Source: Bacteroidota bacterium (GTDB taxonomy: Bacteria; Bacteroidota; Bacteroidia; Chitinophagales; Chitinophagaceae). Taken from it: 64,000 nucleotides of DNA. Location of the stretch: positions 16,114 through 80,113 of the forward strand of contig JBJORA010000090.1 in NCBI GenBank assembly GCA_046049675.1. Reading direction: 5' to 3'. The translations under genes and the position numbers were made by a program. The notes under the pieces were generated by a model, which was not told where the DNA came from, made no database searches, and was given only the letters and a program-made list of their open reading frames with translations. Positions 4,833-30,144 of this stretch are shown here, in pieces. Numbering within the stretch: position 1 is the stretch's first letter; each line of letters begins with the position of its first letter.

Positions 4833-4849
4833 TTTTGGGAGGTTGCCAG

Positions 4850-6075: not shown

Positions 6076-6077
6076 TA

Positions 6078-6512: not shown

Positions 6513-6583
6513 AATGCAAATCGGTTTCTAGCAGCAAAGTTGAAGCTTTAATTGTAGAAAAAGATGTCACAAATGTTTCAAAA

Positions 6584-7174
6584 TTATTTTTTGCTTAACT
6601 GACTTCTAATCCTACTTAGCGATTGGCGTTCTATGCCTAGATAACTAGCTAAATGTGTTAGCGATATTCTATTAAACAAATCGTTGTTTTTTGCCACAAA
6701 ATCTAGGTAGCGCTGTTCTGCTGTTTTAAACACAAAGCTATTCAGTCTTTCTTGCTGCATATAGTATACCTCTTGCGTTATTAGCCTGCCATATCTCTCA
6801 ATATTTTTGTACCTATCATACCCAGCTTGCATGTGTTTGTAACTTAGGTTTATAACTGTTGTAGGCTCTATGCACTCGATAGTATATATAGCGGCAGATT
6901 GGCTCATAAAAGAAATAAAGTCTGCGGCGTATTCATTCTCTTTTATAAACCACACATTTACTTCATTATCATTGTCATCTACATAAAATACCCTCATCAA
7001 ACCGCTTAAAACAAAAGCCATGCTATGTTGAATATTGCCACTATTCAAGTAAATATCTTTTGCACCATAGTTGGTAATCGTTAAGTCCGACGCAATAAAT
7101 TCTAATTCTTCGGTACTAATTAATGGACAAATAGTTTTGTAATGATTCAGGTATTGTTGAAAATGTTTATCCAT
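6584..7174 (-). CDS. Crp/Fnr family transcriptional regulator
   Basis: cNMP-binding-like N-domain. C-terminal HTH ISLTHLASYLGIERQSLSRIRSQL. Confidence 0.65.
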   Translation of the reverse strand: MDKHFQQYLNHYKTICPLISTEELEFIASDLTITNYGAKDIYLNSGNIQHSMAFVLSGLMRVFYVDDNDNEVNVWFIKENEYAADFISFMSQSAAIYTIECIEPTTVINLSYKHMQAGYDRYKNIERYGRLITQEVYYMQQERLNSFVFKTAEQRYLDFVAKNNDLFNRISLTHLASYLGIERQSLSRIRSQLSKK

Positions 7175-7620
7175 TTAATAGCATCATTATTTGCGCTAAT
7201 TTAGCGTTTTAATTCAATTCATGAACTATCTAGTATACATAACATTGGCTTTGGCAATGCACGGTACAATCAATTAATAGTAAACATAAATGCTATAAAA
7301 GATAATCCAAGAGCGCAGTTTATCATCTAATGCTGCAGTTTGTCATTGCAACAGGGCATGCAATTTGTATCCACGTTAACTTCACACTTTGCGGTTAGCA
7401 AATTAAAGCAACTGAGAACTAGATAATTGGTATAAAAAGGGTTGCGTAATAAAGTGGTAATTTTCTTCATATTAAAATCCATTAAATTGCTTCTAAGAAA
7501 CAGTTTAGTGGATTTTTAAATTTTGCAATAAACTGTTTGGTAGAATTAAACAGGTACTTTGTAGAAAAACTTCAAGGTAAGGCATTATAAAGATAATTTT
7601 GTAGTATAAATATTTATTTA

Positions 7621-8730
7621 ATGAAAAAGGTAACAATACTTGCATTTATTGCTATGGCTATTTTTGTTTTTGCTTGCCGCAAAACAAACATTAACGAAAA
7701 TAACGACAAGCTAGTAACTCAAGAATGGCTTAAAGATTTGGAAACGCCGTGGCAAATAGTATTTGCACCAGATGGAAGAATATTTTTTACAGAACGTGCA
7801 GGTCGTGTACGCGTTGTAAAAAATGGTATTCTTTCTACTTGGTTAGATGTATCGGGCGTTATAGAAAATGGCGAGTCTGGTTTATTGGGAATTAATTTAG
7901 ATCCTGATTTTATTAATAATGGTTATGTATACATTGCTTACACTTACTCTACACCGCAATGGAAATTTAATAATAGACTAGTACGTTGTGTTGAAGATAA
8001 AATCACTGGTAAGGGCAAGGAAGATAAAATTTATATTGATGACATTAGAGGCCAAGCCAATCACAATGGTGGTCCGATAAAGATAGGTCCCGATGGAAAA
8101 TTGTATTGGACTGTTGGCGATGGGTTTGACAACAATTTACCGCAAGACCTAAATAGTTTGAATGGGAAAATTTTACGTTTAAATTTAGACGGAACAATAC
8201 CAAGTGATAATCCTTTTCCTAATTCATACATCTGGACATATGGCCATAGAAATGTGCAAGGCCTAGCTTGGCAAGAAGGTACGAACAGACTATTTGTAAC
8301 GGAGCATGGTCCAAGTTCGCCAACGGATTGTTGCATAGATGAAATAAACATTATTGAAAAGGGTAAGAACTATGGCTGGCCTGTAATTAAAGGTACACAA
8401 ACTCAAGCTGGAATGGAAAATCCGATTTGGTTAAGTGGTGCAGATAAAACCTGGGCACCTGCAGGAGCAATTTTTATTAAAAATGGTAAATGGAAAGGCT
8501 CTTTTGTATTTGTGGGTTTAAGAGGAGAAACACTTTACAGAGCTGTAATTGACCCTAATGATGCTAGTAAGATTTTACGCGTAGAAGAATACCTAAAGCA
8601 AACTTATGGCCGACTGCGCGATGTAGCAGAAGCGCCTGATGGCACCTTATACATTTGTGTAAGCAATAGAGATGGTCGCGGTGTACCACGTGCTCAAGAC
8701 GATAGAATTATTAAACTGACGATTCAATAA
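7621..8730 (+). CDS. PQQ-dependent sugar dehydrogenase (soluble aldose dehydrogenase family), lipoprotein
   Basis: Signal peptide plus Cys. Beta-propeller motifs; HGPSSPTDCCIDEINIIEKGKNYGWP and GRVRVV blocks typical of the family. Confidence 0.65.
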   Translation: MKKVTILAFIAMAIFVFACRKTNINENNDKLVTQEWLKDLETPWQIVFAPDGRIFFTERAGRVRVVKNGILSTWLDVSGVIENGESGLLGINLDPDFINNGYVYIAYTYSTPQWKFNNRLVRCVEDKITGKGKEDKIYIDDIRGQANHNGGPIKIGPDGKLYWTVGDGFDNNLPQDLNSLNGKILRLNLDGTIPSDNPFPNSYIWTYGHRNVQGLAWQEGTNRLFVTEHGPSSPTDCCIDEINIIEKGKNYGWPVIKGTQTQAGMENPIWLSGADKTWAPAGAIFIKNGKWKGSFVFVGLRGETLYRAVIDPNDASKILRVEEYLKQTYGRLRDVAEAPDGTLYICVSNRDGRGVPRAQDDRIIKLTIQ

Positions 8731-8736
8731 TTTTTT

Positions 8737-9357
8737 ATGAAAAGACTATTTTTATTGCTGACCATTCTTAGCTTCTCTGCTTATGTGGCAGATGCACAAT
8801 GGCGAAAAGTTGAAAAGCTCAAAAAGGACAAGCAGCCTAATATTAAGATTGCATATCAAGGCAGAACTCCAGAACCTGGTTATAGAATTGGAGCAGAGTT
8901 TATACTTAAAAAGAAGAAAGTAACTTACGGCAAGTTTACACGCATCAATGAAAGATTTCTTTCAGCAAATTTGATGTATGCCTATAATGCGGACTTGTAT
9001 AATATTTTTACCTTACATCCAGAGTATACTACAAGAACAACGCACGCTAAATCGGGTATATTTGCCGACTTAAATTTTGGTTTTGGCGGAGGTGGTACTT
9101 TTAATAATGATCAAGCGCCGGTATATATACTTAACCCTGATGGTAGTGAAAGTATAAAGCCAATCAAAAGATATTTTATAATGGCAAGTATTGGTGCTGG
9201 ACTTGGCTACGATTTTAATTACAGATTAAAGAAGCCTATCAAGCTGTACTATAGATTAGGGCTTTCTCCAGTTTATTTTGAGGCTTTTCCTTATCAAGCT
9301 CTACCAAGGCATGAACTAGGTATTATTACAAACCTTAGCTGGTTAAAGAAAAACTAA
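8737..9357 (+). CDS. secreted/outer-membrane protein, hypothetical
   Basis: Signal peptide MKRLFLLLTILSFSAYVADA. Has a degraded paralog at 11197-11529. Confidence 0.45.
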   Translation: MKRLFLLLTILSFSAYVADAQWRKVEKLKKDKQPNIKIAYQGRTPEPGYRIGAEFILKKKKVTYGKFTRINERFLSANLMYAYNADLYNIFTLHPEYTTRTTHAKSGIFADLNFGFGGGGTFNNDQAPVYILNPDGSESIKPIKRYFIMASIGAGLGYDFNYRLKKPIKLYYRLGLSPVYFEAFPYQALPRHELGIITNLSWLKKN

Positions 9358-9388
9358 ACGGGCTTATTAAGAGTTGTAAATTTAATAC

Positions 9389-10465
9389 ATGCAAGCATTA
9401 AACATTGGCGCTAATCCAGCAGTAAGCTTTTTAGTAAATAAGAAATTTACATGGCTAAGGCATGGCGTATTTGCACTTATTCTAGCGATTGTTTACAATT
9501 TGTTGGATCCTGAAGAAATAAGAAAATTTGCAGAACTGTATAATACGCCTTACACAATTTTGTATTTTGGTTTTATCATTCAATATATTTTTTCATTAGG
9601 ACTGATTTACTTCAATATTTATTTTTTATACCCTAGATTTTTTTTAAGAGGACAAGTCAATAAATATTTCGCAGGTGTTCTAGTAGCAGGTGCAATATTT
9701 TTTTTGGTTGCATTTTTTATACACAAGAGTTACGTAACACAATATGGCGCTAAAGAAGAAAAAGGTATAGACTTTTCATTTTCTTCATTCATAAATGTTA
9801 CACTATTTCCAATTATATTTTTATTGGCAACTACAGGTTACAAGATATTTAAGCAATGGATAGCAGATCAAAACAAATTTGCAGAAATGCAAAAAGAAAA
9901 GTTAATCACTGAATTGCAACAACTAAAAAGTCAAGTAAATCCGCATTTTTTGTTCAATACCCTAAATAATTTAAACGTGTTAATTGGCACCAATCCTACA
10001 AAAGCTTCTGAGATAGTATTAGGACTTTCTGATGTACTGCGTTATCAAATTTATGATAGCCAACATGAGTTAGTATTATTATCAAAAGACATAGAAATTA
10101 TAAAAGAGTTTTTAGAAATTGAAAAAATTAGAAGAGACAATCTGGAATACAAAATACATGCTGCACCTAATATTGCTAGCCTAAGGGTTCCTCCCTTGTT
10201 GTTCACAAATTTTGTAGATAATAGTATAAAGCATAGTATTAGCCGTGCAAAGTCTTCAATAAATATTTCCTTTTATACCGAAGACGAATACTTGTATTTT
10301 AATATAAGCAACACTAAACCTTCGGTAAGTATTGAAAAAATTCAGGGAGGATTAGGATTAGTAAATATTAAAAAAAGACTAGACCTATTGTACGGAGATA
10401 AGCATACATTGCAAATAAGAGACGAGGAAAATACATATACTGTAACACTAAAGATCCCAGTATGA
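9389..10465 (+). CDS. sensor histidine kinase (LytS/YehU-type, His_kinase PF06580-like)
   Basis: N-terminal TM region. Motifs LQQLKSQVNPHFLFNTLNNLNVLI and an ATPase domain. Overlaps the response regulator gene by 4 nt. Confidence 0.7.
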   Translation: MQALNIGANPAVSFLVNKKFTWLRHGVFALILAIVYNLLDPEEIRKFAELYNTPYTILYFGFIIQYIFSLGLIYFNIYFLYPRFFLRGQVNKYFAGVLVAGAIFFLVAFFIHKSYVTQYGAKEEKGIDFSFSSFINVTLFPIIFLLATTGYKIFKQWIADQNKFAEMQKEKLITELQQLKSQVNPHFLFNTLNNLNVLIGTNPTKASEIVLGLSDVLRYQIYDSQHELVLLSKDIEIIKEFLEIEKIRRDNLEYKIHAAPNIASLRVPPLLFTNFVDNSIKHSISRAKSSINISFYTEDEYLYFNISNTKPSVSIEKIQGGLGLVNIKKRLDLLYGDKHTLQIRDEENTYTVTLKIPV

Positions 10466-12167: not shown

Positions 12168-12187
12168 CCTCAGTTCTTACAAATAAT

Positions 12188-12294
12188 TCTTATTCAGAAA
12201 GACCGAGGGATTTGACCCTATGACGTCTTGACAACCTCCCATTTTACATGGAAAGGTGCCAAATTCAACTCCAAGCAATTGGAGAAAAATAAGT
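12188..12294 (+). ncRNA. SAM-I (S-box) riboswitch
   Basis: P1 CUUAUUC...GAAAAAUAAG. Conserved GAGGGA, UGACCC, GCAACC-like and GGUGCCAAAUUC elements. Lies upstream of a Met-biosynthesis PLP enzyme. Confidence 0.75.
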
Positions 12295-12332
12295 TAGAAA
12301 AATAGCAAATACAGTATACTAAAATATATTGA

Positions 12333-14961: not shown

Positions 14962-15429
14962 ATGTATCAGGACTTAGTAGCCGTATTAGGCAAGCACATT
15001 GATAGCAAGGAGTTTCAAGCTATGCTCCAGAAACACTTTCCGGACTTTAAGAAATTTGATAAAAACAAAGAATACAAAGACAAAAAAACAAAAGTGGTAT
15101 TAAGGATAGATTGCCTCACAGCACACGATGATACTGCAAAGACTTCCGAAGACCCAAAAGACTATCAATATTTTATTGCCTTCTTTTTTGGTAAAGACGA
15201 AAGCGAAATGCCATTTGGCATTACGAGCAAAGATGATGAAGCAACGATTATACAAAAGGCAGGCATGCCAACACATCATAATAAAAAGATGGATGGGGGC
15301 ATCTTTGGCAATGTGAACGACCTACACTACCACATTGATAATTATAAAATGTTGGTATCCCTTGATCCAGAAACAGGTAAGCAGTATAATATTGGCATTA
15401 ATTTGCGCTTAAAGGGAATGAAGTTTTAG
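14962..15429 (+). CDS. hypothetical protein
   Basis: 155-aa ORF, no motif recognised. Confidence 0.4.
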   Translation: MYQDLVAVLGKHIDSKEFQAMLQKHFPDFKKFDKNKEYKDKKTKVVLRIDCLTAHDDTAKTSEDPKDYQYFIAFFFGKDESEMPFGITSKDDEATIIQKAGMPTHHNKKMDGGIFGNVNDLHYHIDNYKMLVSLDPETGKQYNIGINLRLKGMKF

Positions 15430-15445
15430 GCTAAGTATATGTATC

Positions 15446-17674
15446 ATGAGAGAGAGCTATAGATATCTATATTGCTGGGTTAGCGTATTCTGCATTTGTA
15501 GCAATGTGGTATTGGCACAAAATACCAAACTGCCTGTCATGGAAATGATATTTGGACCCACAGCCAGCAATGCAGTTGTGGGCAATGGTGGACTAACAGT
15601 GGGTTTGAGCAAGTATGGCGAGGCTGTGAGTATGCGTTGGCCCTGTAGTAATTATTACGATCAATTAAACTTCGCAACTATTCATCCCGTACCAGCTTGG
15701 AATAAAGTAGAATGGTACGATAGGCATTTGAATGCAAAAGAATTTGATGGCGCTTACTGTGGCTTGTCGTTTACACAAAATGGCAAACAAGTCATTACTT
15801 GGTTGAGAGACAAAACATGGACCGCAACACAATCATACTTACAAAACGATGCTGCTGTTGTACTTACTAAATACGTGCATAGCGGTTTAGGTTTAGAAAT
15901 TGTGTGTACAGATTTTGTATTGCCCAATAGTGATGTGTATTGTAGAAATTTCAAATTAGAAAAAAGCAATCCAGCCATAAGTAATATCCAACTATTGACC
16001 ATGAGTAATATGGCTATGTGCAATACCCTTAAGCCTAATGATCCTGCAAGCGATTGGGCCGATGATAGTAAAAATGGTTATGTGAGTTTTTTAGATAAAG
16101 ACAATGATGCTTCGGTTTCTTTCGTGCTAAATGAAAGTAGTGCAAGGTTTAAGCAATTGCCTACAAAAAGCAATGTATCCAATTTTGCAAATGCAGTAAA
16201 AACAAGCTATACCAAGGATGAAACAGTAATTGCAAAAGCATCTCCCAACTTGGATGTTTTCTGTGCTATTAGCGCAAACAAAAAAGCGATAAAGCACTAC
16301 TTGTGCAATAGCAACGAATTTAAGTTAACGCAATTAAACAAGCATAAAGACTATGTTGCCGGCAATAGTATTACATTAAGCACCTATGATCTTTCGCTTA
16401 GTGAAAATGTTCAACTGTTTTATTCATTTGCTGGTAGTTATACAAATAGTATCACACAATTAGCTGAGGCGAAAAGTAAATCGTTTGAAAGTTTATTGCA
16501 AGCAACATTAAGCTATTGGCAACAAAAAATGGCTAAAGCTAAATTGCCAAATGTGCCCGATGCAAAAATGAAAACCACCTTGCAACGCATTTTAATTAAT
16601 ACACTTTTAGCAACAAACAAAGGCAATGGCATAGGCAGTAGCGTTGGTGAAACCCAACCACCCTATACCATGATTTGGGTGCGCGATGCTGCCATAATGG
16701 GGTATATGCTAGACTGTGCGGGCTTTACGCAAGAGGCAGAAGACAATGTAAATTTTATTGCGCGCACACAGCGTAAGCAAGATGGACAAGATTGCCGAAA
16801 GCCCAGTAATAATGAGTGTTACAAAGGTACATGGAGTCAATGCTATTTTGCCAACGGCATACCAAGTTGGGATTATGATTTTGAAGTAGATGAAGTTGGA
16901 TGGGGCATTTGGGCTATGTATACGCATAGTTTATTTTTAGAAGGGCAAAATAAAAAAGCGTATCTGAAACCATTTGAACAAAATATTATTGATGCTGCAG
17001 ATTTTTTAGTGCGCTTTAAAGATGACAATGGTTTACAGAAAAAAGCGCGTGAAGATGATTTGCTTTGGGAAAGCCAAACCATATTGGGTGCTTCTACTAC
17101 TGTAATCGGATTAAAGAGTGCAATTGCAGCATTAAAAATTATTAATCCTACACATATAAAAATTGCAACCTATACAGCACGTTTGCAAGAATTAGAAAAT
17201 GCCATTATTAAAGAATTTTGGAATAGCAATAAACAAGAATTAGGCGAAGCTGTGTATGGTAATTTTGGTCCACGGGGTTTAATTATTTGGCCAGCTCAAT
17301 TTTTACCAATGTCTGATAACAAAATGCAAGCACAAGCAAAAACCATTAGCAAACAGATGGAACCTTTTTTCAATAAAGAATCTTCTGCAATGAATAAAGA
17401 ATGGTGGTATCTAGGTAAAGCCACTACTGCAATGGCAGCTGTAGATAATAACGAAACAAAGACACTTACTAAGCAATACTTGGGCATTTTACTAAAAGAT
17501 GTATGTACACAAGACACTTATATTTATGGCGAAACGCCTATGCTTCGTAAAAATATCGCTGGCAAATGGTACTACGACAACCGCGTAGGCCAACCGAGTA
17601 ATCATCCAGCGGCTTGGATATACATGACGGCAGAATTGTTATATGGCAATACTCATCCAGAATTGTATAAATAA
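15446..17674 (+). CDS. secreted glycoside hydrolase, GH15 (glucoamylase-like) family candidate
   Basis: Signal peptide. WVRDAA and DDLLWESQ blocks resemble GH15 catalytic-region motifs. 742 aa. Confidence 0.4.
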   Translation: MRESYRYLYCWVSVFCICSNVVLAQNTKLPVMEMIFGPTASNAVVGNGGLTVGLSKYGEAVSMRWPCSNYYDQLNFATIHPVPAWNKVEWYDRHLNAKEFDGAYCGLSFTQNGKQVITWLRDKTWTATQSYLQNDAAVVLTKYVHSGLGLEIVCTDFVLPNSDVYCRNFKLEKSNPAISNIQLLTMSNMAMCNTLKPNDPASDWADDSKNGYVSFLDKDNDASVSFVLNESSARFKQLPTKSNVSNFANAVKTSYTKDETVIAKASPNLDVFCAISANKKAIKHYLCNSNEFKLTQLNKHKDYVAGNSITLSTYDLSLSENVQLFYSFAGSYTNSITQLAEAKSKSFESLLQATLSYWQQKMAKAKLPNVPDAKMKTTLQRILINTLLATNKGNGIGSSVGETQPPYTMIWVRDAAIMGYMLDCAGFTQEAEDNVNFIARTQRKQDGQDCRKPSNNECYKGTWSQCYFANGIPSWDYDFEVDEVGWGIWAMYTHSLFLEGQNKKAYLKPFEQNIIDAADFLVRFKDDNGLQKKAREDDLLWESQTILGASTTVIGLKSAIAALKIINPTHIKIATYTARLQELENAIIKEFWNSNKQELGEAVYGNFGPRGLIIWPAQFLPMSDNKMQAQAKTISKQMEPFFNKESSAMNKEWWYLGKATTAMAAVDNNETKTLTKQYLGILLKDVCTQDTYIYGETPMLRKNIAGKWYYDNRVGQPSNHPAAWIYMTAELLYGNTHPELYK

Positions 17675-17680
17675 ATTAAA

Positions 17681-18229
17681 ATGAAAAAAGTTACACTATT
17701 ACCGCAAATTGGTGTGCATATTGAAGGCCTTGGTCAACTAAACTTTGGCGACAATAAAGAACAAGTATTTAAGCTACTTGGCGAACCAAGTTTTGTTTGC
17801 TCAGAAAAACGCTTTGAGTTTAAAGACTATGGTTGCTTTATTGACTTTAAGAAAAGCGATAACACATTTGAATGCGCCGAATTTTGGAATGATGGCAAGG
17901 ATAATGCAGCTCAAGTATATATTTATGATATTGAGGTGCTACAAAATGAAGCCATGCCTATAAAGAAACTACTTCAAGAAAAAAACAATAAAGAGGAAGC
18001 AAAGGATGGTTGGTATATAAATATTGATGTAATCTACGCTGGAGGTAGTCAGCACACGATGCTTAATTATATTGAAGAACTGAAGAAAGATGGGCAATTT
18101 GAAGGTATAGCGCAAGAACAAGCCCTTATTGATTTAGAGAAAGCCAAATACTTTTCTGCTTTTGGCATTGGCTACAAAGGTTATTGTAAAGATGGACTAG
18201 CGGAGATTGACATGCTTATGCTTAAGTAA
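17681..18229 (+). CDS. hypothetical protein
   Basis: 182 aa, no motif recognised. Confidence 0.4.
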   Translation: MKKVTLLPQIGVHIEGLGQLNFGDNKEQVFKLLGEPSFVCSEKRFEFKDYGCFIDFKKSDNTFECAEFWNDGKDNAAQVYIYDIEVLQNEAMPIKKLLQEKNNKEEAKDGWYINIDVIYAGGSQHTMLNYIEELKKDGQFEGIAQEQALIDLEKAKYFSAFGIGYKGYCKDGLAEIDMLMLK

Positions 18230-18274
18230 TATTTGAACTTTGCAGAACTCTGCTGCTAGGCTTACCTTTAATAG

Positions 18275-18397
18275 ATCGCAAAGTTTACTTTTACGCAATA
18301 AACTATTATTTTTGAGTATGATAACGGTGCCCTTATGCAGCCTAATGAGACGGATCGTGGAACACTTAATTGACTCAATTGGCCACGCTGCTGCATC
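18275..18397 (+). repeat. R2 intergenic repeat copy A (hairpin GCAAAG..CTTTTNGC + TAttTTTG + TATGATAAC + ..ATTGACTCAATT..)
   Basis: Aligns with the copies at 24828, 53031, 58317 and weaker ones at 26411 and 28163. Lies 40 nt upstream of the 18440 gene. Confidence 0.6.
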
Positions 18398-18439
18398 AAT
18401 CAGTATTCTTTGGTGGTATTTTAATAAAACGACACAGCT

Positions 18440-19309
18440 ATGGGAACATGGGGAATAGCCATAAAAGACAATGACGCATTTGCCGACATTTACAGCGAAT
18501 TCTTCGACCAATATAATAAAGGTGGACAACCTGAAATTATTGCCAAGAAAATCATAGACGACAATTGGGAAATTCTTGAAATAGAAGAAGAAAAGAATAG
18601 CTTATGGTTTGCTCTTGCTTTGGCTCAATGGGAGACAAAGTCGCTAGACCCCAAAGTATTATCGACAGTTGAGGATATAATTACATCAGGTGCTGATTTG
18701 AAAATTTGGCTTGATCTTGGAGCAAGTGAACAAGACATTAAAAAACGAAAAATTGCACTTGACAAATTTCTCGAAAAAATCAAGTTAGAAAGACCAAAGG
18801 CTAAACCAAGAAAAAAGGAAAAATTAAAATCGCCAATTTTCGCAACAGGAGACTGTTTAGTTTTTAGATTAACAAATGGAAATTATGGCGGCGCAGTCGT
18901 TTTGGCGACAGACATTAATCCTGAGACAGCATACAATTTGATAGCTACAACAAGACTAAATCAAAGTCATAAACCGACACTTGAGGACTTCGAAAATGCT
19001 GAAGTTCTAATTTGCAATTTCGGTCAATGGCAAGACAGCGTAGCGGTAACTTGGTATATGCCCGACTTATTTTATAAAGACTATGTAGAAATTTACGAGA
19101 ACATTGGAAAAATGTCTGTAGATCTAAAGTACGACACAAAGAATTATGAGGGCAAAGCCTATTTGTTTGAACCTACTTATACGTCAGGCTGGACTATGAA
19201 TACTGTGGCACAAAATCAATTCGAATCTGAAATAGCGAAGTCGAAACCGACAAAGACTATAACGATAAGACAGCTAACTAAAAAAGAGAAATGGTGGAAA
19301 GTATTCTAG
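18440..19309 (+). CDS. DUF4259-like protein
   Basis: N-terminus MGTWGIAIKDNDAFADIYSEFFDQY resembles the DUF4259 signature (recall). Confidence 0.4.
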   Translation: MGTWGIAIKDNDAFADIYSEFFDQYNKGGQPEIIAKKIIDDNWEILEIEEEKNSLWFALALAQWETKSLDPKVLSTVEDIITSGADLKIWLDLGASEQDIKKRKIALDKFLEKIKLERPKAKPRKKEKLKSPIFATGDCLVFRLTNGNYGGAVVLATDINPETAYNLIATTRLNQSHKPTLEDFENAEVLICNFGQWQDSVAVTWYMPDLFYKDYVEIYENIGKMSVDLKYDTKNYEGKAYLFEPTYTSGWTMNTVAQNQFESEIAKSKPTKTITIRQLTKKEKWWKVF

Positions 19310-19540
19310 GACAAAGGCTCTATATCTTAAGCTCCCATAATTGGCTGGCATAGAAACCACATCCAACAATTTTTTGATCTTTAAGAAAAGACACTTTCAA
19401 GTGGCAAACATAAACATTCTGAACCCTAAAGTCCACTATAATTATTATGGCAAGGCATTATTTTACGTAATAAATTATTCTCTTGAGAAGAACAAAATTG
19501 CTAGTATCTATTGTCAGCAGGTGGATCATCCAACTATTGG

Positions 19541-19570
19541 TTGGCGCAATTGGCAGCTCAATTGCGCCAA
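19541..19570 (+). promoter_or_regulatory. perfect 12-bp inverted repeat TTGGCGCAATTG-N6-CAATTGCGCCAA
   Basis: Read directly in the sequence, 180 nt upstream of the giant helicase gene. Candidate operator. Confidence 0.4.
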
Positions 19571-19751
19571 GTACTATTCGCTAGAAATGCATGCAATAGC
19601 TACACTCTCGGTACTACACTTCTGCATTATTAAGCAACGACTAGAATAATTTTTTGGCAGTTAAACAACTCTATAAGACCTGTGCTAATTCAATTTTTAA
19701 AATACATCATGTTTGGAATAAATTTCGCAATAATGACTATTTTAGAGCAGT

Positions 19752-22700
19752 ATGAACTCAATTGCATTCGTTGACACCGAGATTGAGCCAAAAAGCCGAA
19801 AGATTCTTGACATTGGAAGTGTCAAGGACGACGGTAGTTCTTTTCATTCAAATTCCGTTACTGACTTTATAAAGTTTCTTAGCGGCACACAGTTCATTTG
19901 CGGACACAATATATTGTATCATGACTTACAGTACATTCAGAAAGCCGTTTCAGATGCAAATGTAAATTCAGATAACGTCATTGACACTTTGTATCTCTCT
20001 CCTCTTTTGTTTCCAACAAGACCCTATCATGCTTTACTCAAGGACGACAAACTTCAAACAGAAGACTCTAATAATCCGCTTAACGATTCCATAAAAGCCA
20101 AGGATCTTTTCTTTGACGAAGTTTCTAACTTCAACCAATCAGACGAGAAACTAAAAAAGCTTTTCTATTTACTATTATACGACAAAAAGGAGTTCAACGC
20201 CTTTTTTCGTTTCATTGCATATACTTGCAGCGACACAGACACTGAAGATTTTATTCGCAAAACATTTGATTCGGTTATTTGCGAACATGCTAACCTTTCA
20301 AAAATAATTTCGGAGCACCCGATTGAATTAGCTTACTGCTTAGCTCTCATAAATTGCAATAACCGATATTCAATAACACCACCTTGGATTTTAAGAAACT
20401 ATCCCAAAGTTGAATGCTTAATGTTTTTGCTAAGAAACAATCCTTGTATCACTGGTTGTAAGTATTGCGATAAAGCATTTGATATTCACAAAGCACTAAA
20501 GGAAAATTTCGGCTATGATGCTTACAGAACTTATGCAGGAGAGCCACTTCAGGAGAACGCAGTTCAAGCAGCAGTTGACAACAAATCTCTATTAGCAGTA
20601 TTTCCTACTGGTGGTGGCAAGTCAATTACTTTTCAAGTTCCTGCATTGATGGCTGGTGAAAACTCAAAAGGTTTAACAGTGGTGATTTCTCCTTTGCAAT
20701 CGCTAATGAAAGACCAGGTTGACAATCTAGAAAAGATAGGAATCACTACTGCTGTTACAATAAACGGTTTGCTTGACCCCATTGAAAGAGCAAAATCTAT
20801 TGAAAGAGTTCAAGATGGTTCAGCATGTCTCCTTTATATTTCTCCTGAATCTTTGCGATCAAAGACCACTGAAAGAATTCTTTTAGGAAGAAAAATTGTT
20901 CGCTTTGTTATTGACGAAGCACACTGCTTTTCTTCATGGGGCCAAGATTTCAGAGTAGATTATTTATACATCGGCGATTTCATCAAATCAATTCGGGAAA
21001 GTAAAAATCTTGAAGAACAAATTCCAGTTTCATGCTTTACTGCAACTGCAAAGCAAAAAGTCATTGAAGACATTTGTGCATACTTCAAAGAAAAGTTGGG
21101 AATCAAATTGGAAATATTCCCCTCCAAAGCGACAAGAACAAACTTGCAATACAGAGTTTTTGAAAAAGGCAACGATGAAGAAAAGTATAACGCAGTTCGC
21201 GATTTAATTGAAGAGAAAAATTGCCCGACAATTATTTATGTTTCAAGAACCAAACGAGCAAGAACCCTTGCAGAAAGATTAAAGGAAGATGGATTTGATG
21301 CAAGAGCATTTCATGGCAAAATGGAAAGCCAAGAGAAAACAGCGAATCAAGATGCTTTTATTTCTGGAGCGGTTCAAATAATGGTGGCGACCTCTGCTTT
21401 TGGGATGGGCGTTGATAAGAAGGATGTTGGAATGGTCATTCACTATGAAATTTCTGACTCACTCGAAAACTATGTTCAGGAGGCAGGCAGAGCAGGGCGA
21501 GATCAAAACATAAAAGCAGACTGTTATGTTTTGTTTAACGAAGAAGACCTCGGCAAACATTTTATCTTGTTGAATCAAACTAAGATCAATATACATGAGA
21601 TCAAGCAAATTTGGAACGCACTGAAGTACCTTACAAAATTCAAATCGAGTGTTCAAAAATCTGCTTTGGAAATCGCAAGAGCGGCAGGTTGGGACGATAG
21701 CTTGCACGAGATAGAAACAAGAGTTACAACTGCAATTGCTGCATTGGAAGAAGCAGGCTATGTGAAAAGAAAACAAAACATGCCAAGAGTTTTCGCCAAT
21801 AGTATTTTATCAAAGACGGCACAAGAAGCGATTGATAAAATTATGCGTTCGCAAAAATTCAGCGAGGATCAAAAAATGGCTGCAACAAGAATTGTCAAAG
21901 CCCTCTTTTCAAGTAAAAGCAGAAAACAAACAAAATCTGATGAAGCTGAATCAAGAGTTGATTACATCTCTGATAATTTGGGCATTGATATTAAGAATGT
22001 CATAGCAGTAGTTAATCTGTTACGTGACGAAAATATTTTGGCAGATGCAAAAGATTTAACTGCATTCATCAAAAGAGGTGAGAATAAAAATCGTTCACTT
22101 GCAATTGTTCATAGCTATGGCCTAATAGAAAACTTCCTTTGTCCATTGTTTGGCGAACAAGAAAAATCATTCCATATTAAGCAGCTAAACGAACAAGCAG
22201 AAGCCGCTGGATGTAGAGATGTTTCACCAACAAAAATAAAAACGATCATCAATTTTTGGGCGATTAAGAATTGGATAAAGCGACACAACAAAGATTATTC
22301 GAAGAATCAAATTGTTGCAATTAGTTGCCAACCAATAGAAGAACTAAGAAAAAGATTAGAGAAGCGACACATTTTAGCGGAGTTTGTTGTTAACTATTTA
22401 TATAAAAAGAGCAATATAATTCTTGAAGAAGTCGAAGCAGAAAAAGATGAAGTATTAGTAGAATTTTCCGTTCTAGAATTACAAGCGGCATTTGAAAAGC
22501 AACCCCAAGAGTTGTTTGCTTTTAAGGCAAGCATGGAAGACATTGAAGATACCTTGTTTTATCTATCACGAATAGAAGCAATAGGGATTGAAGGCGGCTT
22601 CCTTGTTGTGTACAATAAACTTTCAATTGATAGAATTGAACAGAATAATAGGGTTCAATATAAAGACCAGGATTATCAAGCGCTAAAACAGTATTACGAA

Positions 22701-24578
22701 CATAAGGTTCAGCAGATTCACATCGTTGGCGAGTATGCCAAGAAAATGATTGATGATACCACTGGAGCACTACAATTTGTTGACGACTATTTTCAATTAA
22801 ACTTTCCTTCTTTCTTAACTAAATACTTTAAAGCAAGAGAGTATGAAATAGGAAGAAACATAACGCCACAGAAACACAGGCAACTTTTTGATTCTTTATC
22901 GGAGGTTCAGCGAAACATTATTGACGACAAAGATTCAAGATACATTGTTGTTGCAGCTGGACCAGGAAGCGGCAAGACAAGAGTTCTGGTGCACAAATTA
23001 GCTTCATTGCTTTTGATGGAAGACGTTAAGCATGAGCAATTGCTGATGCTAACCTTTTCTAGAGCAGCAGCAACTGAATTCAAGAAAAGGCTGATTGAAC
23101 TAATAGGCAATGCAGCAAACTTCATCGACATAAAAACCTTTCACTCTTATTGTTTTGACCTCTTGGGCAAGGTTGGAACAATTGACACAGCAGATAGAAT
23201 TATCAAAGCCACGGTAGCGAAAATAAGAAATAACGAGGTTGAGGTGAGCAGAATTACAAAAACAGTTTTGGTGATTGATGAAGCACAGGATATGGACCAC
23301 GAGGAATTTGAGCTGATAAGCGTACTCATGGAAAAGAATGATGAAATGAGAGTAATTGCAGTAGGAGATGATGACCAAAATATTTATGAATGGAGGGGAG
23401 CCGATTCGAAATACTTGGTAAGCTTTATTATAGATAAAAAGGCAACGAAATACGAGCTCATCAAAAATTACAGAAGTAAAAGTAATTTGGTTTCATTTGC
23501 TAACCAATTTGTAAGGACAATTGATGGGCGCCTTAAAGAAATCCCGATTGAAGCACAACAAACTGACAATGGGAAAATTAAGATTGTTCATTACAAAAAT
23601 GGAAACCTCATTGCTCCCCTTATTGACGACATACTTTCAACTGACCTTTCAGGTACAACATGCATCTTGACACACAAGAACGAGGAAGCATTTCAAGTAG
23701 CAGGACTTCTGACCAAATACGGACACCAAGCTAAGTTGATTCAGAGCAACGATAGTTTTAGCTTATATAATCTGATAGAGATACGTTACTTTTTGGATGA
23801 GTTGAGATTAGACGATGATGTATTTATTATTAGCGACGATGTTTGGGAGAGCGCGAAAAGACAATTGATACACAGATACAAAGCAAGTTCAAAGTTTGAA
23901 ATTTGTTACAACCTTATTAGGGATTTTGAAAGCACAAACACCAAAAAGAAATACAAGTCGGACTTTGAAGTTTTCATCCGTGAATCAAAGTTGGAAGATT
24001 TTATAAGCACTAGTGGAGATACAATATTTGTTTCTACAATTCACAAGGCAAAAGGAAGAGAATTTGACAACGTGTTCTTATTGCTTGAAAATTTTGATGC
24101 AAGAGAAGCTGAAAAGAAGCGACAACTGTATGTGGCAATGACAAGGGCAAAGCAAAGGCTGACGATTCATTTGAATGGAAATTATCTTGACAATTTGAAG
24201 ACGGAAGAATTAGAGCGGATTGAAAATAATAGCACATTCCAAGCGCCAAGCGGTTTGGTTTTACACCTTTCGCACAAGGATTTAAAGTTGGGATACTTTG
24301 AGTATGTGCAGAAACGAGTAAATGCATTGACAAGCGGAGATTCACTTAGTATATCTGATGAAGGTTGTAAAAACGAAAAAGGCGAATTAGTATTAAAGTT
24401 CTCAAAAAGATTTCTTGAAAGATTAGTAGTTGCAAAGAAGAGGGGTTATGAGTTGAAAGATGCTAAAGTGAATTTCATTGTCTATTGGAAAAATGAGGAT
24501 AAAGGGATTGAAGTAAAAATTGCCCTTCCAGAATTGCATTTTGAACACGCAAATACAGTAAATGCGCAAGTTGACTAG
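19752..24578 (+). CDS. 1608-aa fusion protein: DnaQ-like 3'-5' exonuclease + RecQ-family helicase + UvrD/PcrA-like SF1 helicase
   Basis: Exo motifs FVDTE...GHNILYHD. RecQ Walker A PTGGGKS, DEAH VIDEAHCFSSWGQDFR, and ATSAFGMGVDKKDVGMVIHYEISDSLENYVQEAGRAGRD. UvrD Walker A AAGPGSGKT, DEAQD, GDDDQNIYEWRGA, VAMTRAK. Confidence 0.8.
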   Translation: MNSIAFVDTEIEPKSRKILDIGSVKDDGSSFHSNSVTDFIKFLSGTQFICGHNILYHDLQYIQKAVSDANVNSDNVIDTLYLSPLLFPTRPYHALLKDDKLQTEDSNNPLNDSIKAKDLFFDEVSNFNQSDEKLKKLFYLLLYDKKEFNAFFRFIAYTCSDTDTEDFIRKTFDSVICEHANLSKIISEHPIELAYCLALINCNNRYSITPPWILRNYPKVECLMFLLRNNPCITGCKYCDKAFDIHKALKENFGYDAYRTYAGEPLQENAVQAAVDNKSLLAVFPTGGGKSITFQVPALMAGENSKGLTVVISPLQSLMKDQVDNLEKIGITTAVTINGLLDPIERAKSIERVQDGSACLLYISPESLRSKTTERILLGRKIVRFVIDEAHCFSSWGQDFRVDYLYIGDFIKSIRESKNLEEQIPVSCFTATAKQKVIEDICAYFKEKLGIKLEIFPSKATRTNLQYRVFEKGNDEEKYNAVRDLIEEKNCPTIIYVSRTKRARTLAERLKEDGFDARAFHGKMESQEKTANQDAFISGAVQIMVATSAFGMGVDKKDVGMVIHYEISDSLENYVQEAGRAGRDQNIKADCYVLFNEEDLGKHFILLNQTKINIHEIKQIWNALKYLTKFKSSVQKSALEIARAAGWDDSLHEIETRVTTAIAALEEAGYVKRKQNMPRVFANSILSKTAQEAIDKIMRSQKFSEDQKMAATRIVKALFSSKSRKQTKSDEAESRVDYISDNLGIDIKNVIAVVNLLRDENILADAKDLTAFIKRGENKNRSLAIVHSYGLIENFLCPLFGEQEKSFHIKQLNEQAEAAGCRDVSPTKIKTIINFWAIKNWIKRHNKDYSKNQIVAISCQPIEELRKRLEKRHILAEFVVNYLYKKSNIILEEVEAEKDEVLVEFSVLELQAAFEKQPQELFAFKASMEDIEDTLFYLSRIEAIGIEGGFLVVYNKLSIDRIEQNNRVQYKDQDYQALKQYYEHKVQQIHIVGEYAKKMIDDTTGALQFVDDYFQLNFPSFLTKYFKAREYEIGRNITPQKHRQLFDSLSEVQRNIIDDKDSRYIVVAAGPGSGKTRVLVHKLASLLLMEDVKHEQLLMLTFSRAAATEFKKRLIELIGNAANFIDIKTFHSYCFDLLGKVGTIDTADRIIKATVAKIRNNEVEVSRITKTVLVIDEAQDMDHEEFELISVLMEKNDEMRVIAVGDDDQNIYEWRGADSKYLVSFIIDKKATKYELIKNYRSKSNLVSFANQFVRTIDGRLKEIPIEAQQTDNGKIKIVHYKNGNLIAPLIDDILSTDLSGTTCILTHKNEEAFQVAGLLTKYGHQAKLIQSNDSFSLYNLIEIRYFLDELRLDDDVFIISDDVWESAKRQLIHRYKASSKFEICYNLIRDFESTNTKKKYKSDFEVFIRESKLEDFISTSGDTIFVSTIHKAKGREFDNVFLLLENFDAREAEKKRQLYVAMTRAKQRLTIHLNGNYLDNLKTEELERIENNSTFQAPSGLVLHLSHKDLKLGYFEYVQKRVNALTSGDSLSISDEGCKNEKGELVLKFSKRFLERLVVAKKRGYELKDAKVNFIVYWKNEDKGIEVKIALPELHFEHANTVNAQVD

Positions 24579-24827
24579 GTTTAATAACTGTACCAGACCT
24601 AGTATGAGTGAACTGGAAATAGCACGAAATAGGCGGCAACCGTGCTCCTATTGGCCTTCGTCACTAACCCACTAAGTTGTTTGCAATATCTGCGGCGGCG
24701 GATTAGATTTAATGCTATCGCATAGGTGTATCACTCGCCAGTAGTGTTGGGTGAGCTGTATGGTGTTTGCAAGTAAGCCATTACAACTACTACGTGGCAT
24801 CTACTTAGTTAACTGCAAAAGCTAAAA

Positions 24828-24947
24828 CAATTATTTTGGCAAAGCCTGCTTTTGCGTAACAATTTATTATTTTTGATGATGATAACAATGCTCGCAGATA
24901 TAAGCTTCTTCGAACACGTGATTGACTCAATTCGCAATGCTAGCCCG
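24828..24947 (+). repeat. R2 intergenic repeat copy B
   Basis: CAATTATTTTGGCAAAGCCTGCTTTTGCG...TTATTATTTTTGATGATGATAAC...GATTGACTCAATT. Confidence 0.6.
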
Positions 24948-25180: not shown

Positions 25181-25771
25181 ATGGACATAAAGTATATTGA
25201 GAAGAACTACGAAAGCATGCCCGATAGCGAAATTATTAGAATTGCGACGACAGATGCTCATGGATTGCGACCAGAAGTTTTTGGAATTATTGAGAAAGAA
25301 ATCAAGAAACGAAATCTTAATCCTGACATCTTAAAGGGTGCACTTGCGCAAAACAAGGAATATTCATCTGAGGAAATAGAAGACTATTCAAAACTGTTGA
25401 GAGATTTACCTTGTCCCATTTGTGGCAATACACACGAAAAACTAAATGGGACAGTGTCCTATACAGTGCAAAGTTTTATAGTTTTTACCTCATATGGAAG
25501 TGAGCCAACAATTGCTTGTCCAGACTGTCTCGACAAGAAAAATAATGACGCAATGCTTTCAACGGCTTTACTTGGTTGGTGGGGAATTCCTTCGGGAATT
25601 TTAAAGACGCCACTATATATTTATAGAAACTATAAAGCTAAACAAGAAAACAGAATTGACGCTTCAAATAGTGCCCTGCTTTCGTTTGTACTCGACAACA
25701 TTGGAGAAATCGAAACATACAAAGAAGACAAACAAAAACTTAAAGCAATCATAAAGCCGAAGAAATACTAA
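25181..25771 (+). CDS. hypothetical protein with a zinc-ribbon-like CPICG...CPDC
   Basis: 196 aa. The Cys pairs are visible. Confidence 0.4.
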   Translation: MDIKYIEKNYESMPDSEIIRIATTDAHGLRPEVFGIIEKEIKKRNLNPDILKGALAQNKEYSSEEIEDYSKLLRDLPCPICGNTHEKLNGTVSYTVQSFIVFTSYGSEPTIACPDCLDKKNNDAMLSTALLGWWGIPSGILKTPLYIYRNYKAKQENRIDASNSALLSFVLDNIGEIETYKEDKQKLKAIIKPKKY

Positions 25772-25919
25772 CCAGTCGCCAATGCGGCTCATCCTAAAGG
25801 TGAACACTTCAAAACGACAGGCAGCAGAGCTAATATTTAGTTTCGAACTATGAACGACACACATTCGTGGTAAGCAGAATATTTGACAATTTAAGTAAAC
25901 ATAGGATAGCGATTTAATT

Positions 25920-26381
25920 TTGAGTACACAGCAAGACATAAGTGATGTTTTTTCGATGCTTCATGATGGAGTAATTGAAAGTTGGACAGGTAGTAAAGAA
26001 AAACTATTACTAAAAATTAGCTGCTTGTACTTAGCAGAACTCATAAACAAAGACTTTGAATACTTTTATGTAGAGATAGCAGAAGTGCAAAAAATTGAAC
26101 TTGATACGTGGATTAATCCAATTGAAGACGGCCCACAAATATTAACAGAACTATCAGATATTTTTAAAGCCGAATTGGAGATACTCTCAGCTGAGAATAA
26201 AGATAGCGGGGTTGTGATAACATGCAATCAACCATTTAGGGAGATAAATTATAGTGGCGGTCATCTTACCTTAAACTGTACATCAGTCAAAGTATTTAAG
26301 CAAGACAGAAATGAACTGACAATTAAGGCATTAAAAGAGCTATGTACACAATATTGGGACAGCTTTAGGAAAAGAATATAG
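25920..26381 (+). CDS. hypothetical protein
   Basis: 153-aa ORF. Confidence 0.35.
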   Translation: MSTQQDISDVFSMLHDGVIESWTGSKEKLLLKISCLYLAELINKDFEYFYVEIAEVQKIELDTWINPIEDGPQILTELSDIFKAELEILSAENKDSGVVITCNQPFREINYSGGHLTLNCTSVKVFKQDRNELTIKALKELCTQYWDSFRKRI

Positions 26382-26552
26382 TTAACCACAAAAGCCACCA
26401 TAGTTATTTTGGCAACGCGTGCGTTTACACAAACTCTATAATCCAGCCCTTCGGCAAAACCAAAAGATATGTCTTTTCACCTATTTTTTGGGCAGTCTAA
26501 AAATATTTACTACTTTTGTTAACCTATTTCGTTAATAATATTTATCTTTTCA

Positions 26553-26885
26553 TTGGAAATAAGTTATAGAAACAAAAAACTTGAAAAGCAATTGACAGAT
26601 CCAAAAGAGATGGTAAAATCCTTTGGTCAGTTGGCTCGTAAGGTAAATCAAAGACTAAAAGATTTAGGTGATGCGGACGATTTATCAATTATGAGAAGTA
26701 TTCCGGCTGCAAGATGCCACGAACTAGTAGGCGATCGCAAAGGTGAATTAGCGGTAGACGTTTCAAGCAACTACCGACTGATTTTTGAGCCAGTCCATGA
26801 TCCAATACCCAAAAAAGATGATGGCGGTTTGAATTGGGAGGAAGTCACCAAAATTCAGATTAATGAAATAGAAGACTACCATTAA
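26553..26885 (+). CDS. higB: type II toxin, HigB-type (RelE/ParE superfamily, plasmid-killer family)
   Basis: C-terminal block ELVGDRKGELAVDVSSNYRLIFEPV...INEIEDYH matches the HigB signature (GDRKG...I.DYH). Confidence 0.65.
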   Translation: MEISYRNKKLEKQLTDPKEMVKSFGQLARKVNQRLKDLGDADDLSIMRSIPAARCHELVGDRKGELAVDVSSNYRLIFEPVHDPIPKKDDGGLNWEEVTKIQINEIEDYH

Positions 26886-26910
26886 AACAGATAGAACTTA
26901 GGTAAACACA

Positions 26911-28002
26911 ATGGCAACAAAATTAGAAATAGCAAAATCGTTACTCTCGCCTCCCGGCGATACTATTCAGGAGCATATTGATTTTATTGGAATGAGCCAA
27001 GCTGAACTTGCAGAAAGAATGGGCAGACCAAAGGAAAAAATCAATGATGTAATTAAAGGAAGAGAACCAATTTCTACTGCAACAGCTTTTCAATTGGAAA
27101 AAGTTTTAGGTATCTCTGCAAGTTTTTGGTTGAATAGAGAGAAGACATACCGTAAAGAGCTCTATGAATTACAACAACAGGAAGAACTAGAAAGGCAAAA
27201 AGGATGGTTGTGTGCATTTCCAATAAATGAGATGCGAAAATATGCATGGATACCTGATACAAAAGAGAAGCATACTTCGGTGGACAATTTATTAAAATTC
27301 TTTAGTGTAGCATCAACTGAAGAATGGGAAAGGATTTATGTGGATGAAGAAGTTTCTGTTGCATTCAAAATCTCACTGGCTCACACCAAAAGCCCTCATG
27401 CTATTTCAGCATGGTTGCGTAAGGGTGAGATACAAGCTAAGGAAATAGACGTTGCGGAATTTGATAAAAAGAAATTCAAAGAAGCTATGGCAGAAATCAA
27501 AGAAGTGGCCTTTTTGATGCCTGACAATTACACAAAACAATTACGCAATATCTGCGCCAAATGTGGCGTCGCGGTTGTATTAACTCAAAACTTGCCAAAA
27601 GCACCAATAAGTGGAGCAACACGTTGGTTTCATAACAAACCAATCATTCAATTATCTGGTCGCTTTAGGACCAATGACCATTTTTGGTTTACTTTTTTCC
27701 ATGAAGCGGCACATATCATTTTGCACGGCAAAAAAGACATCTTTTTGGAAAATGTAGAAGGCACAGAAACAGACCAAGAAAAAGAGGAAGAAGCTAATGC
27801 ATTTGCTGCTAAAATATTGCTGACTGAAAATGAACTACAACAGATTATTGATGCAGCTCCATTGACCGAAAAAATGATTTATGAGTTTGCAAATAAATTC
27901 AGAACACCACCAGGTGTAATTATAGGCAGATTACAACATTTAAAACTCATTCCATTTCATATCGGCAATAGTTTCAGGCGAAAAATTGATTTATTTAGCT
28001 AA
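26911..28002 (+). CDS. XRE-family HTH antitoxin fused to an ImmA/IrrE-type (COG2856) HExxH metallopeptidase domain
   Basis: N-terminal HTH (GMSQAELAERMGRPKEKINDVIKG). C-terminal HEAAHIILH. Immediately downstream of higB. Confidence 0.65.
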   Translation: MATKLEIAKSLLSPPGDTIQEHIDFIGMSQAELAERMGRPKEKINDVIKGREPISTATAFQLEKVLGISASFWLNREKTYRKELYELQQQEELERQKGWLCAFPINEMRKYAWIPDTKEKHTSVDNLLKFFSVASTEEWERIYVDEEVSVAFKISLAHTKSPHAISAWLRKGEIQAKEIDVAEFDKKKFKEAMAEIKEVAFLMPDNYTKQLRNICAKCGVAVVLTQNLPKAPISGATRWFHNKPIIQLSGRFRTNDHFWFTFFHEAAHIILHGKKDIFLENVEGTETDQEKEEEANAFAAKILLTENELQQIIDAAPLTEKMIYEFANKFRTPPGVIIGRLQHLKLIPFHIGNSFRRKIDLFS

Positions 28003-29130: not shown

Positions 29131-30144
29131 TTAAATGGCATACCACCCACCCATCTCACCAATCCTCTTCGCAATTTTCTTCTTCAATAGCCTCGGTGCA
29201 AGAACTTTCAGTTGTTCGCCAAAGCCGAGCAGCTCGCGTTCTAGCTCAAAGTTATGGACCACGCATATCTTAAAGATCGTGCCGTCTTCGTCTTGCTTGA
29301 GTACTTCTTGGCTAGGGTGTAGTGGTTTGGTTAGCACGTAGGGCGCGTCGCTTTTTCGTATCCAGAATACAATATTTTGTGCGCGGTCTTTTTCTGTTTT
29401 GGTTACCCCAATGGTATCGGCATAGTATTCGTCAAAGGGTTTGCCTTTGTAGGGCACAAACTTTTCTTTTTCGTTTATGGTAAAAGACTCAATGCGGTCT
29501 AGGGCAAGTGTAATGAGTATATCGCCTTTCTTTGGCTTGCAAATTAAGAACCAACGGTTACGATATTCTTTGAGCAGGTAGGGAAAGTATATGCCTTCTG
29601 TACCTTGTTTTGCCTTGAAGGATTTGTACACAATGTTTAGCGTGGTACGATTGGCAATGGCCTGGTACAAGGGATTGATAAAATCTAAACCTTTTAGCAG
29701 TGGGTTGCTTTCAAATTGTACATAGTTGTGTTTAGCGCCTGCAGTTTGTTCTATACTATTTTCAAGCTTGGTAATCATTTCACTCATTTCGGTGAAGTGG
29801 GCAAAACCGCTAAACTGTTTAAGCACTTGCACGATGCCTTTTAGTTTACCAAGATCGCCTTCGTTGAGCTGCGACTTAAAAATGCTATAGTCTTTGTCGT
29901 CGTAAGTATAGTAGCGTTTGTTTACAACAACGATGGGCGCATTATAGCCAAGGGTATCGCTGCGCATCACTTGTATATCTTGCTGTATGGTGCGTTTGGC
30001 AATACCGGTATGTTTGCCTTCAAAGTCGTAGAGCGCATCTGCTACGGCATCTATTAGGTCTTCTAGTGTCCATTTGCGCAATCTATTTTGCAGACACTTA
30101 TCTATGGTTTTATAGCGCAGTAATGCTTGTTTGTTTGTAGCCAT
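29131..30144 (-). CDS. WYL-domain transcriptional regulator (HTH + WYL; BrxR/CapW-like architecture)
   Basis: 337 aa. N-terminal wHTH. Central WYL-like region (LLKEYRNRWFLIC...). This family typically flanks defense systems. Confidence 0.6.
   Translation of the reverse strand: MATNKQALLRYKTIDKCLQNRLRKWTLEDLIDAVADALYDFEGKHTGIAKRTIQQDIQVMRSDTLGYNAPIVVVNKRYYTYDDKDYSIFKSQLNEGDLGKLKGIVQVLKQFSGFAHFTEMSEMITKLENSIEQTAGAKHNYVQFESNPLLKGLDFINPLYQAIANRTTLNIVYKSFKAKQGTEGIYFPYLLKEYRNRWFLICKPKKGDILITLALDRIESFTINEKEKFVPYKGKPFDEYYADTIGVTKTEKDRAQNIVFWIRKSDAPYVLTKPLHPSQEVLKQDEDGTIFKICVVHNFELERELLGFGEQLKVLAPRLLKKKIAKRIGEMGGWYAI

Follow-up and report, generated by a model that had tools for sequence, protein, structure and literature searches.

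The window analysed here is a stretch of 64,000 nucleotides (nt) from a member of the Chitinophagaceae (Bacteroidota; contig JBJORA010000090.1). A complete gene at 19752..24578 on its forward strand encodes a giant protein that joins a predicted DnaQ-fold exonuclease, a RecQ-like superfamily 2 (SF2) helicase core and a UvrD-like superfamily 1 (SF1) helicase core in one chain. The gene begins with ATG, encodes 1608 amino acids (aa) and ends with a stop codon at 24576-24578.

Integrity of the open reading frame

The open reading frame (ORF) contained a single stop codon, at its end. Given the local base composition, stop codons were expected at ~7% of codons, and the chance of a 1608-codon open run is, by arithmetic, of the order of 1e-50. 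The same protein exists as record P0001, from a metagenome-assembled genome of the Bacteroidota, and in two public assemblies that contain this sequence the giant ORF is called as one gene. Relatives were found in more than 120 clusters at 75-87% identity, nearly all of ~1600 aa, with one 1520-aa partial. Because the clusters of relatives are nearly all of this length, the fusion is no frameshift or assembly artefact. A split of the ORF by a frameshift had been named as an outcome that would count against the fusion; the ORF was found intact and its relatives to be of the same length.

Across 74 full-length relatives, the helicase motifs of both cores were 95-100% conserved, with one or two peripheral positions excepted. 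An earlier interpretation made from the letters of the DNA (the sequence-only reading) had proposed an intact exonuclease, RecQ and UvrD fusion in one chain. The ORF, Pfam matches, structure model and motif conservation all agree with it.

The N-terminal exonuclease module

The N-terminal 245 residues gave no Pfam match, even at E <= 10, and no match to Protein Data Bank (PDB) sequences using phmmer; a profile search reached only E = 1.2. In an AlphaFold model of residues 1-245, with a predicted local distance difference test (pLDDT) score of 88.3, the module is predicted to have an RNase H-like/DnaQ exonuclease fold, an identification made by structure prediction alone. Its best structural match was the exonuclease of S. 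aureus DinG, at 17% sequence identity. From the model and the invariant residues, a compact DnaQ-fold (DEDD-type) 3'-5' exonuclease core was assigned to residues 1-105 (19752..20066, forward strand). Residues 106-245 (20067..20486, forward strand) form a helical domain that contains D112 and four invariant cysteines.

Catalytic residues were assigned using 76 diverse full-length representatives of the family, which are 37-65% identical in the exonuclease region. The residues D8, E10, H52, N53, D58, D78, T79, H93, K97, P109 and D112 were invariant in this set. D8 and E10 make up the ExoI motif and D58, within GHNxxxHD, belongs to ExoII; these were invariant in 40 close relatives as well as in the 76 distant ones, and the ExoII segment could be aligned to a TREX1 homologue. 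The putative ExoIII motif is spaced as H-x18-D (H93 to D112), compared with H-x4-D (DEDDh) or Y-x3-D (DEDDy) in the canonical forms. The pair H93-x4-D98 does have canonical spacing, yet D98 is not conserved family-wide. The loop 93-104, between H93 and D112, was modelled with low confidence (pLDDT < 50), and D112 lies at the start of helix 109-129. Given the invariance across the 76 representatives, the acidic residues of the DEDD set are most likely D8, E10, D58 and D112, the last being the probable fourth, and H93 would be the histidine. The sequence-only reading had considered all DEDD motifs to be present. This held for D8, E10 and D58; the putative ExoIII, with H93 and D112, departs from the canonical spacing.

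Four cysteines were also invariant family-wide: C177 (20280-20282) and the CxxxCxxC motif C232-x3-C236-x2-C239 (20445-20468). Together they probably bind a metal, either zinc or an iron-sulfur cluster. The four-cysteine (Cys4) set is located before the RecQ-like core, not after it. Just after that core there is one cysteine, and therefore no Cys4 site occurs there.

The RecQ-like core and the linker

Residues 246-620 (20487..21611, forward strand) make up the RecQ-like SF2 core, as identified by Pfam, the TIGR00614 model, hidden Markov models (HMMs) of defence proteins and invariant motifs. Pfam placed DEAD at residues 265-440 and Helicase_C at 477-584. The landmarks of the core are the Walker A lysine K290, DEAH at 388-391 and an arginine-finger motif at 576-584. 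The motifs TGGGKS (286), DEAHC (388), TATA (430) and QEAGRAGRD (576) were 97-100% conserved in the 74 relatives.

Membership of the RecQ family was supported at the family level, with a score for TIGR00614 (recQ_fam) of 270.4 bits against a cut-off of 219.8. The RecQ equivalog models gave scores far below their cut-offs (TIGR01389, 309.8 vs 640.2; NF008279, 236.8 vs 1015). No RQC or HRDC domain was detected by Pfam, the scan at E <= 10 included. Among the defence HMMs, the best matches, within residues 243-732, were DpdF (325 bits, 1e-97) and PsyrT (275 bits).

The core is followed by a conserved linker (residues 621-1044; 21612..22883, forward strand), which contains helix-and-strand units resembling winged-helix domains. 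Searches with the 426-residue linker found nothing useful in Pfam and nothing among PDB sequences, and no nuclease fold was detected in residues 621-1044. The linker may be a winged-helix array, though this assignment is tentative because the linker was modelled at a pLDDT of only 64.

The UvrD-like core and the C-terminal domain

Residues 1045-1480 (22884..24191, forward strand) form a UvrD/PcrA-like SF1 core, as identified by Pfam, GajB and PcrA models and invariant motifs. UvrD-helicase/AAA_19 was matched at residues 1051-1213 and UvrD_C at 1361-1474, with UvrD_C_2 matched too (PF00580, 5e-34; PF13361, 1.7e-22; PF13538, 1.8e-13). The core has the Walker A lysine K1075, DEAQD at 1176-1180 and motifs III-VI. 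GPGSGKT (1070), DEAQD (1176), GDDDQNIY (1205), NYRS (1239) and VAMTRAK (1461) were essentially invariant in the 74 relatives. GajB models matched this half with 149 bits (6e-44). The UvrD-family equivalog models again fell well short of their cut-offs (PcrA, 129.1 vs 911; UvrD, 121.8 vs 1144; Rep, 97.3 vs 951).

The C-terminal domain (residues 1481-1608; 24192..24575, forward strand) is the least conserved part of the protein, with conservation of 0.49-0.60. The C-terminal 132 residues gave no Pfam match at E <= 10.

Distribution of the family

When 185,579 genomes, each standing for one species, were scanned, at least 386 proved to carry a relative; narrow search patterns make this number a lower bound. 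Over the full length, the best 80 of the 386 were 67-86% identical. Matches occurred in Flavobacteriales, Chitinophagales, Cytophagales, Bacteroidales and Saprospiraceae, with carriers that include Flavobacterium, Ferruginibacter and other Chitinophagaceae, Arcicella, Emticicia, Odoribacter and other Bacteroidales, and Saprospiraceae. A few of the taxon labels, Asaia, Bifidobacterium and Brocadia among them, probably stem from contigs that were mis-binned.

A profile of the N-terminal module reached further, matching the representatives of 1523 clusters built at 50% identity, and in 312 cases the match was below 1e-30. Its top matches were full-length proteins of ~1600 aa or shorter entries resembling fragments. 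Distant full-length relatives were found in Firmicutes, Campylobacterota, Proteobacteria and Cyanobacteria, plasmids included, and named distant members come from Lachnospiraceae/Ruminococcus and Mycoplasmatota. In 11 plasmid records the match covered >= 80% of the protein; these were from Bacteroides and Phocaeicola (50% identity), Aliarcobacter (34%), and Allochromatium, Cereibacter, Rhizobium, Nostoc and Scytonema (27-29%). The architecture occurred in none of 50,697 phage records. Members are named in databases only as 'RecQ family ATP-dependent DNA helicase'.

The distribution is thus patchy and crosses orders, which is not that of a uniformly conserved core repair gene, the outcome that had been set against the sequence-only reading. 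The gene appears to be an accessory one, patchy and horizontally spread, and moving as a lone gene.

Genomic neighbourhood of the relatives

Within 10 kilobases (kb) of the gene in 81 loci, 1081 ORFs of >= 70 aa were collected and clustered. No conserved neighbour was found among them, and no neighbour family occurred in more than 11 loci. This bears out the suggestion that the protein may stand alone. Similarity between the DNA of the window and that of other loci started at the ATG, or at most ~40 nt upstream, and stopped near 24545, ~30 nt short of the stop codon. Most of the 81 loci are chromosomal, and no integrase, transposase or conjugation gene recurred beside the giant gene in them.

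The only recurring neighbour was a gene for an HNH_2 (PF13391) endonuclease, located directly upstream in ~10% of the loci, with HNH among the immediate neighbours in 8-9 loci. In seven of these (L001, L016, L034, L037, L059, L075 and L079) the HNH_2 gene overlaps the giant start codon by 4 nt, which suggests co-translation, and in L040 the two genes are separated by a 27-nt gap. The loci with HNH_2 were scattered over the tree of the giant protein, indicating that the pairing was gained or kept repeatedly. No HNH remnant was found upstream of the gene in the window by tblastn. Other immediate neighbours included McrBC, PDC-S41 (a Schlafen-like helicase), PDC-S13, AbiO, AbiE, MADS, SoFic and a type I methylase.

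Clear defence genes were present in 7 of 12 annotated 10-kb contexts. One held type I restriction-modification (RM) and HNH genes, and another, from Flavobacterium luteum (L088), an MmeI-like RM gene, HNH, a deaminase and a second, 1615-aa helicase. Others combined SIR2, a KAP NTPase and TerB; SLATT, PIN, PLD-SNF2 and an MmeI-like RM gene; Fic and Gp49/helix-turn-helix (HTH) genes; or GmrSD and HsdR. The seventh is the window itself, with a HigB-like gene, a PD-Lambda-2_B-like HTH/M78 gene and a WYL/WCX regulator. The remaining five contexts were mostly housekeeping, plasmid-core or ambiguous.

Two loci showed features of their own. In L088, the second giant helicase (1615 aa; 4576-9423) has AAA_11/AAA_12 and MTES_1575 domains and lies just upstream of the family member. 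In L086 (4300-18844), the giant gene occurs with DUF6155 and Bro-N genes between alpha-2-macroglobulin fragments and a pbpC-like penicillin-binding-protein gene, in what looks like an insertion into that operon.

Local features of the window

The giant gene had been described as bracketed by copies of a repeat, R2. These do exist (18278-18330 and 24839-24891, 77% identical over 53 nt), but they belong to a local family of four intergenic copies of ~60-110 nt (18236-18345, 19395-19505, 24795-24905 and 26368-26478), with no link to the giant-gene family. Each copy lies upstream of a transcription unit. The R2 core TGGCAANGCNTGCNTTTNCNNAA occurred three times, against 0.05 expected by chance, and was absent from 83 loci of other genomes, which indicates that R2 belongs to this genome rather than to the gene family. 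Two promoter assignments were compared by eye and rejected. The spacing did not fit a sigma-54 promoter, and for a Bacteroidota -33/-7 promoter the -7-like TATTTTTG was present in only two of the four copies. Scans for sigma-70 promoters and terminators performed no better than shuffled sequences.

A perfect 12-base-pair (bp) inverted repeat, TTGGCGCAATTG / CAATTGCGCCAA (19541-19552 / 19559-19570, 6-nt spacer), lies ~180 nt upstream of the giant gene. It is present as the sequence-only reading had reported, but the flank is not conserved in relatives and it has no link to the family. No T-run follows it, and it could be an operator.

The gene upstream (18440-19309, 289 aa) had been described as DUF4259-like. 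It gave no Pfam match even at E <= 5, and the label is therefore unsupported; the gene is local to this genome and has no link to the giant-gene family. A 102-aa ORF at 19341-19649, which overlaps an R2 copy, was not called in the two public assemblies. The surrounding genes of 155, 742, 182, 289, 196 and 153 aa (14962-19309 and 25181-26381) matched nothing significantly in Pfam or PADLOC; for the 182-aa product a BamE match below threshold was all that was found.

Two genes downstream of the giant gene, at 26553-28002, lies a gene for a HigB-like toxin (PF05015) and, after it, one whose product has HTH and M78 peptidase domains and matches PD-Lambda-2_B (2.6e-37). This pair is a possible defence or toxin-antitoxin module. 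The WYL/WCX-domain regulator is encoded on the reverse strand at 29131-30144, at the edge of the region. Further away, adjoining genes at ~32592-34938 encode T4-type RNA ligase (PF09511) and Hen1 N-terminal (PF22032) domains, a pair that resembles a bacterial RNA repair cassette. An S-adenosylmethionine (SAM) riboswitch (RF00162, 77.9 bits; 12187-12295) lies upstream of genes for a Cys/Met-metabolism pyridoxal-phosphate-dependent enzyme and a homoserine dehydrogenase.

Comparison with known helicase-nucleases

Known helicase-nucleases combine a nuclease with one motor, as in WRN, DinG and Cas3, or obtain two motors from separate subunits, as in RecBCD and AddAB. DinG of S. aureus and B. subtilis, like the giant protein, has an exonuclease (DEDDh in DinG) fused to an SF2 helicase. 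Its motor is of the XPD/DinG type, not the RecQ type, it is a vertically inherited repair gene and, to our knowledge, it has neither a second, SF1 motor nor a long winged-helix linker. WRN likewise joins an exonuclease to a RecQ helicase, though without a UvrD-like motor. Its nuclease is of the DEDDy type, and it carries the RQC and HRDC domains that Pfam did not find in the giant protein. The two fusions probably arose independently.

RecBCD/AddAB likewise has two ATP-driven motors and a nuclease, combined in a single machine that processes DNA, and RecBCD also destroys foreign linear DNA. These enzymes are built from several subunits; their two motors, both SF1, run with opposite polarity, the nuclease is of the PD-(D/E)xK type and activity is under Chi control. 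The giant protein carries on one chain a motor of SF2, another of the SF1A type and an exonuclease of the DEDD type.

Three defence proteins resemble one half each. DpdF was the best HMM match to the RecQ-like half, yet the NCBIfam model NF041063 scored 221.1 bits against a cut-off of 550, and no dpd genes were found near the gene in the window or recurring in the 81 loci. Neither the DpdF nor the PsyrT model covers the exonuclease or the UvrD-like half. GajB of Gabija resembles the SF1 half. GajB works with GajA, an ATPase-TOPRIM nuclease, and no GajA was found in the window or among the 25 commonest families of neighbours. Judged by these sequence-based membership tests, the giant protein lies outside the DinG, WRN, RecBCD/AddAB, DpdF, PsyrT and GajB groups.

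Discussion

The explanation that we favour, with confidence that goes no further than an even balance, is that the protein is a self-contained nuclease-helicase acting against invading DNA, from phage or plasmid. This role is inferred from context, namely the three intact modules, the lack of an obligatory partner, horizontal spread and frequent placement in defence islands. A DNA end, gap or fork would be bound through the winged-helix array and the DNA unwound by one or both of the ATP-driven motors, RecQ-like SF2 and UvrD-like SF1. The freed 3' strand would then be fed to the N-terminal 3'-5' exonuclease, so that the target DNA may be degraded or its replication blocked. In some genomes, the HNH endonuclease encoded upstream could supply the first cut. 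The substrates, motor polarity, cooperation of the modules and protective effect in this scheme are what we infer.

Several observations weigh against a defence role. Judged from their families, the two motors would both run 3'-5', and therefore cooperation in the style of RecB and RecD would not be expected. It is unusual for a defence gene to show identity as tight as the 67-86% seen here over 1600 residues. Three of the 12 contexts were largely housekeeping or had no recognisable defence gene, and a fourth was ambiguous; the copy on the Aliarcobacter plasmid pACIB adjoins parAB and rep. The control set, ORFs lying 6.5-10 kb from the gene, itself included Dnd, Cas1, Kiwa and MADS genes; since these are defence genes, the set is uninformative as a background for enrichment. 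PADLOC-DB v2 contains no full-length model of the family, and a full-text literature search found no description of an exonuclease joined to motors of two superfamilies. The addition of a second motor had been called unusual from the sequence; with 1523 cluster representatives, the architecture is not rare in databases.

Some of the same evidence would fit an accessory repair or replication-stress enzyme, a counterpart of the WRN or DinG exonuclease-helicases that acts at host forks, flaps or R-loops and has no immune role. The very high sequence conservation is in keeping with such an enzyme, as is the presence of some copies among housekeeping genes. RecQ and UvrD are classic families of repair helicases, and the N-terminal module has its best structural match in the S. 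aureus DinG exonuclease. B. subtilis DinG is reported to have 3'-5' exo(ribo)nuclease activity and to mitigate replication stress (PMC12525004). We nevertheless consider a repair role somewhat unlikely. The distribution of the family is patchy, with at least 386 of 185,579 species genomes matched, identity between orders is above what we would expect from vertical descent, and each locus has a different context, in 7 of 12 cases a defence island. The wide margins by which the RecQ, UvrD, PcrA and Rep equivalog cut-offs were missed, and the failure of Pfam to find RQC or HRDC, also argue against it.

The plasmid copies raise the question of whether the gene instead serves a mobile element, in its replication, its establishment after transfer, the exclusion of competitors or counter-defence. 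Besides pACIB, a plasmid record of Bacteroides finegoldii has a full-length relative in the vicinity of ssb, parA and parG genes, most of the protein is encoded in 11 plasmid records, and in L086 the giant gene, along with DUF6155 and Bro-N genes, looks as if inserted into an operon. Against this, the loci are mostly chromosomal and have no recurring integrase, transposase or conjugation gene, and the 50,697 phage records lack the architecture. Homology is also confined to the ORF, and because of this no element boundaries are visible. A role of this kind therefore seems improbable.

A role as the toxin in a toxin-antitoxin pair of the PsyrTA/RqlHI type, restrained by a neighbouring antitoxin, is very doubtful: the PsyrT model does match residues 246-710 (2.3e-82), and RqlH is reported to be a genotoxic RecQ-like helicase held back by RqlI (PMC4670107), but no PsyrA/RqlI-like partner was seen, there being no conserved neighbour of >= 70 aa in the 81 loci and no partner gene family in any of the 12 contexts.

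Proteins that combine a helicase with a nuclease play a central part in DNA repair as well as in bacterial immunity. If the nuclease-helicase does act against invading DNA, the family may represent, as we suggest more tentatively, an immune system that consists of a single gene, has so far gone unrecognised and occurs in many bacterial phyla. It would be a one-chain DNA shredder in which a winged-helix array links the SF2 and SF1 motors to a DEDD exonuclease with an unusually placed active-site histidine and a Cys4 metal centre (zinc or iron-sulfur), with an optional HNH partner. If the repair role were true, it would be a bacterial WRN analogue that travels between genomes. The family is large and strongly conserved, and its members are easily cloned, each being one gene.

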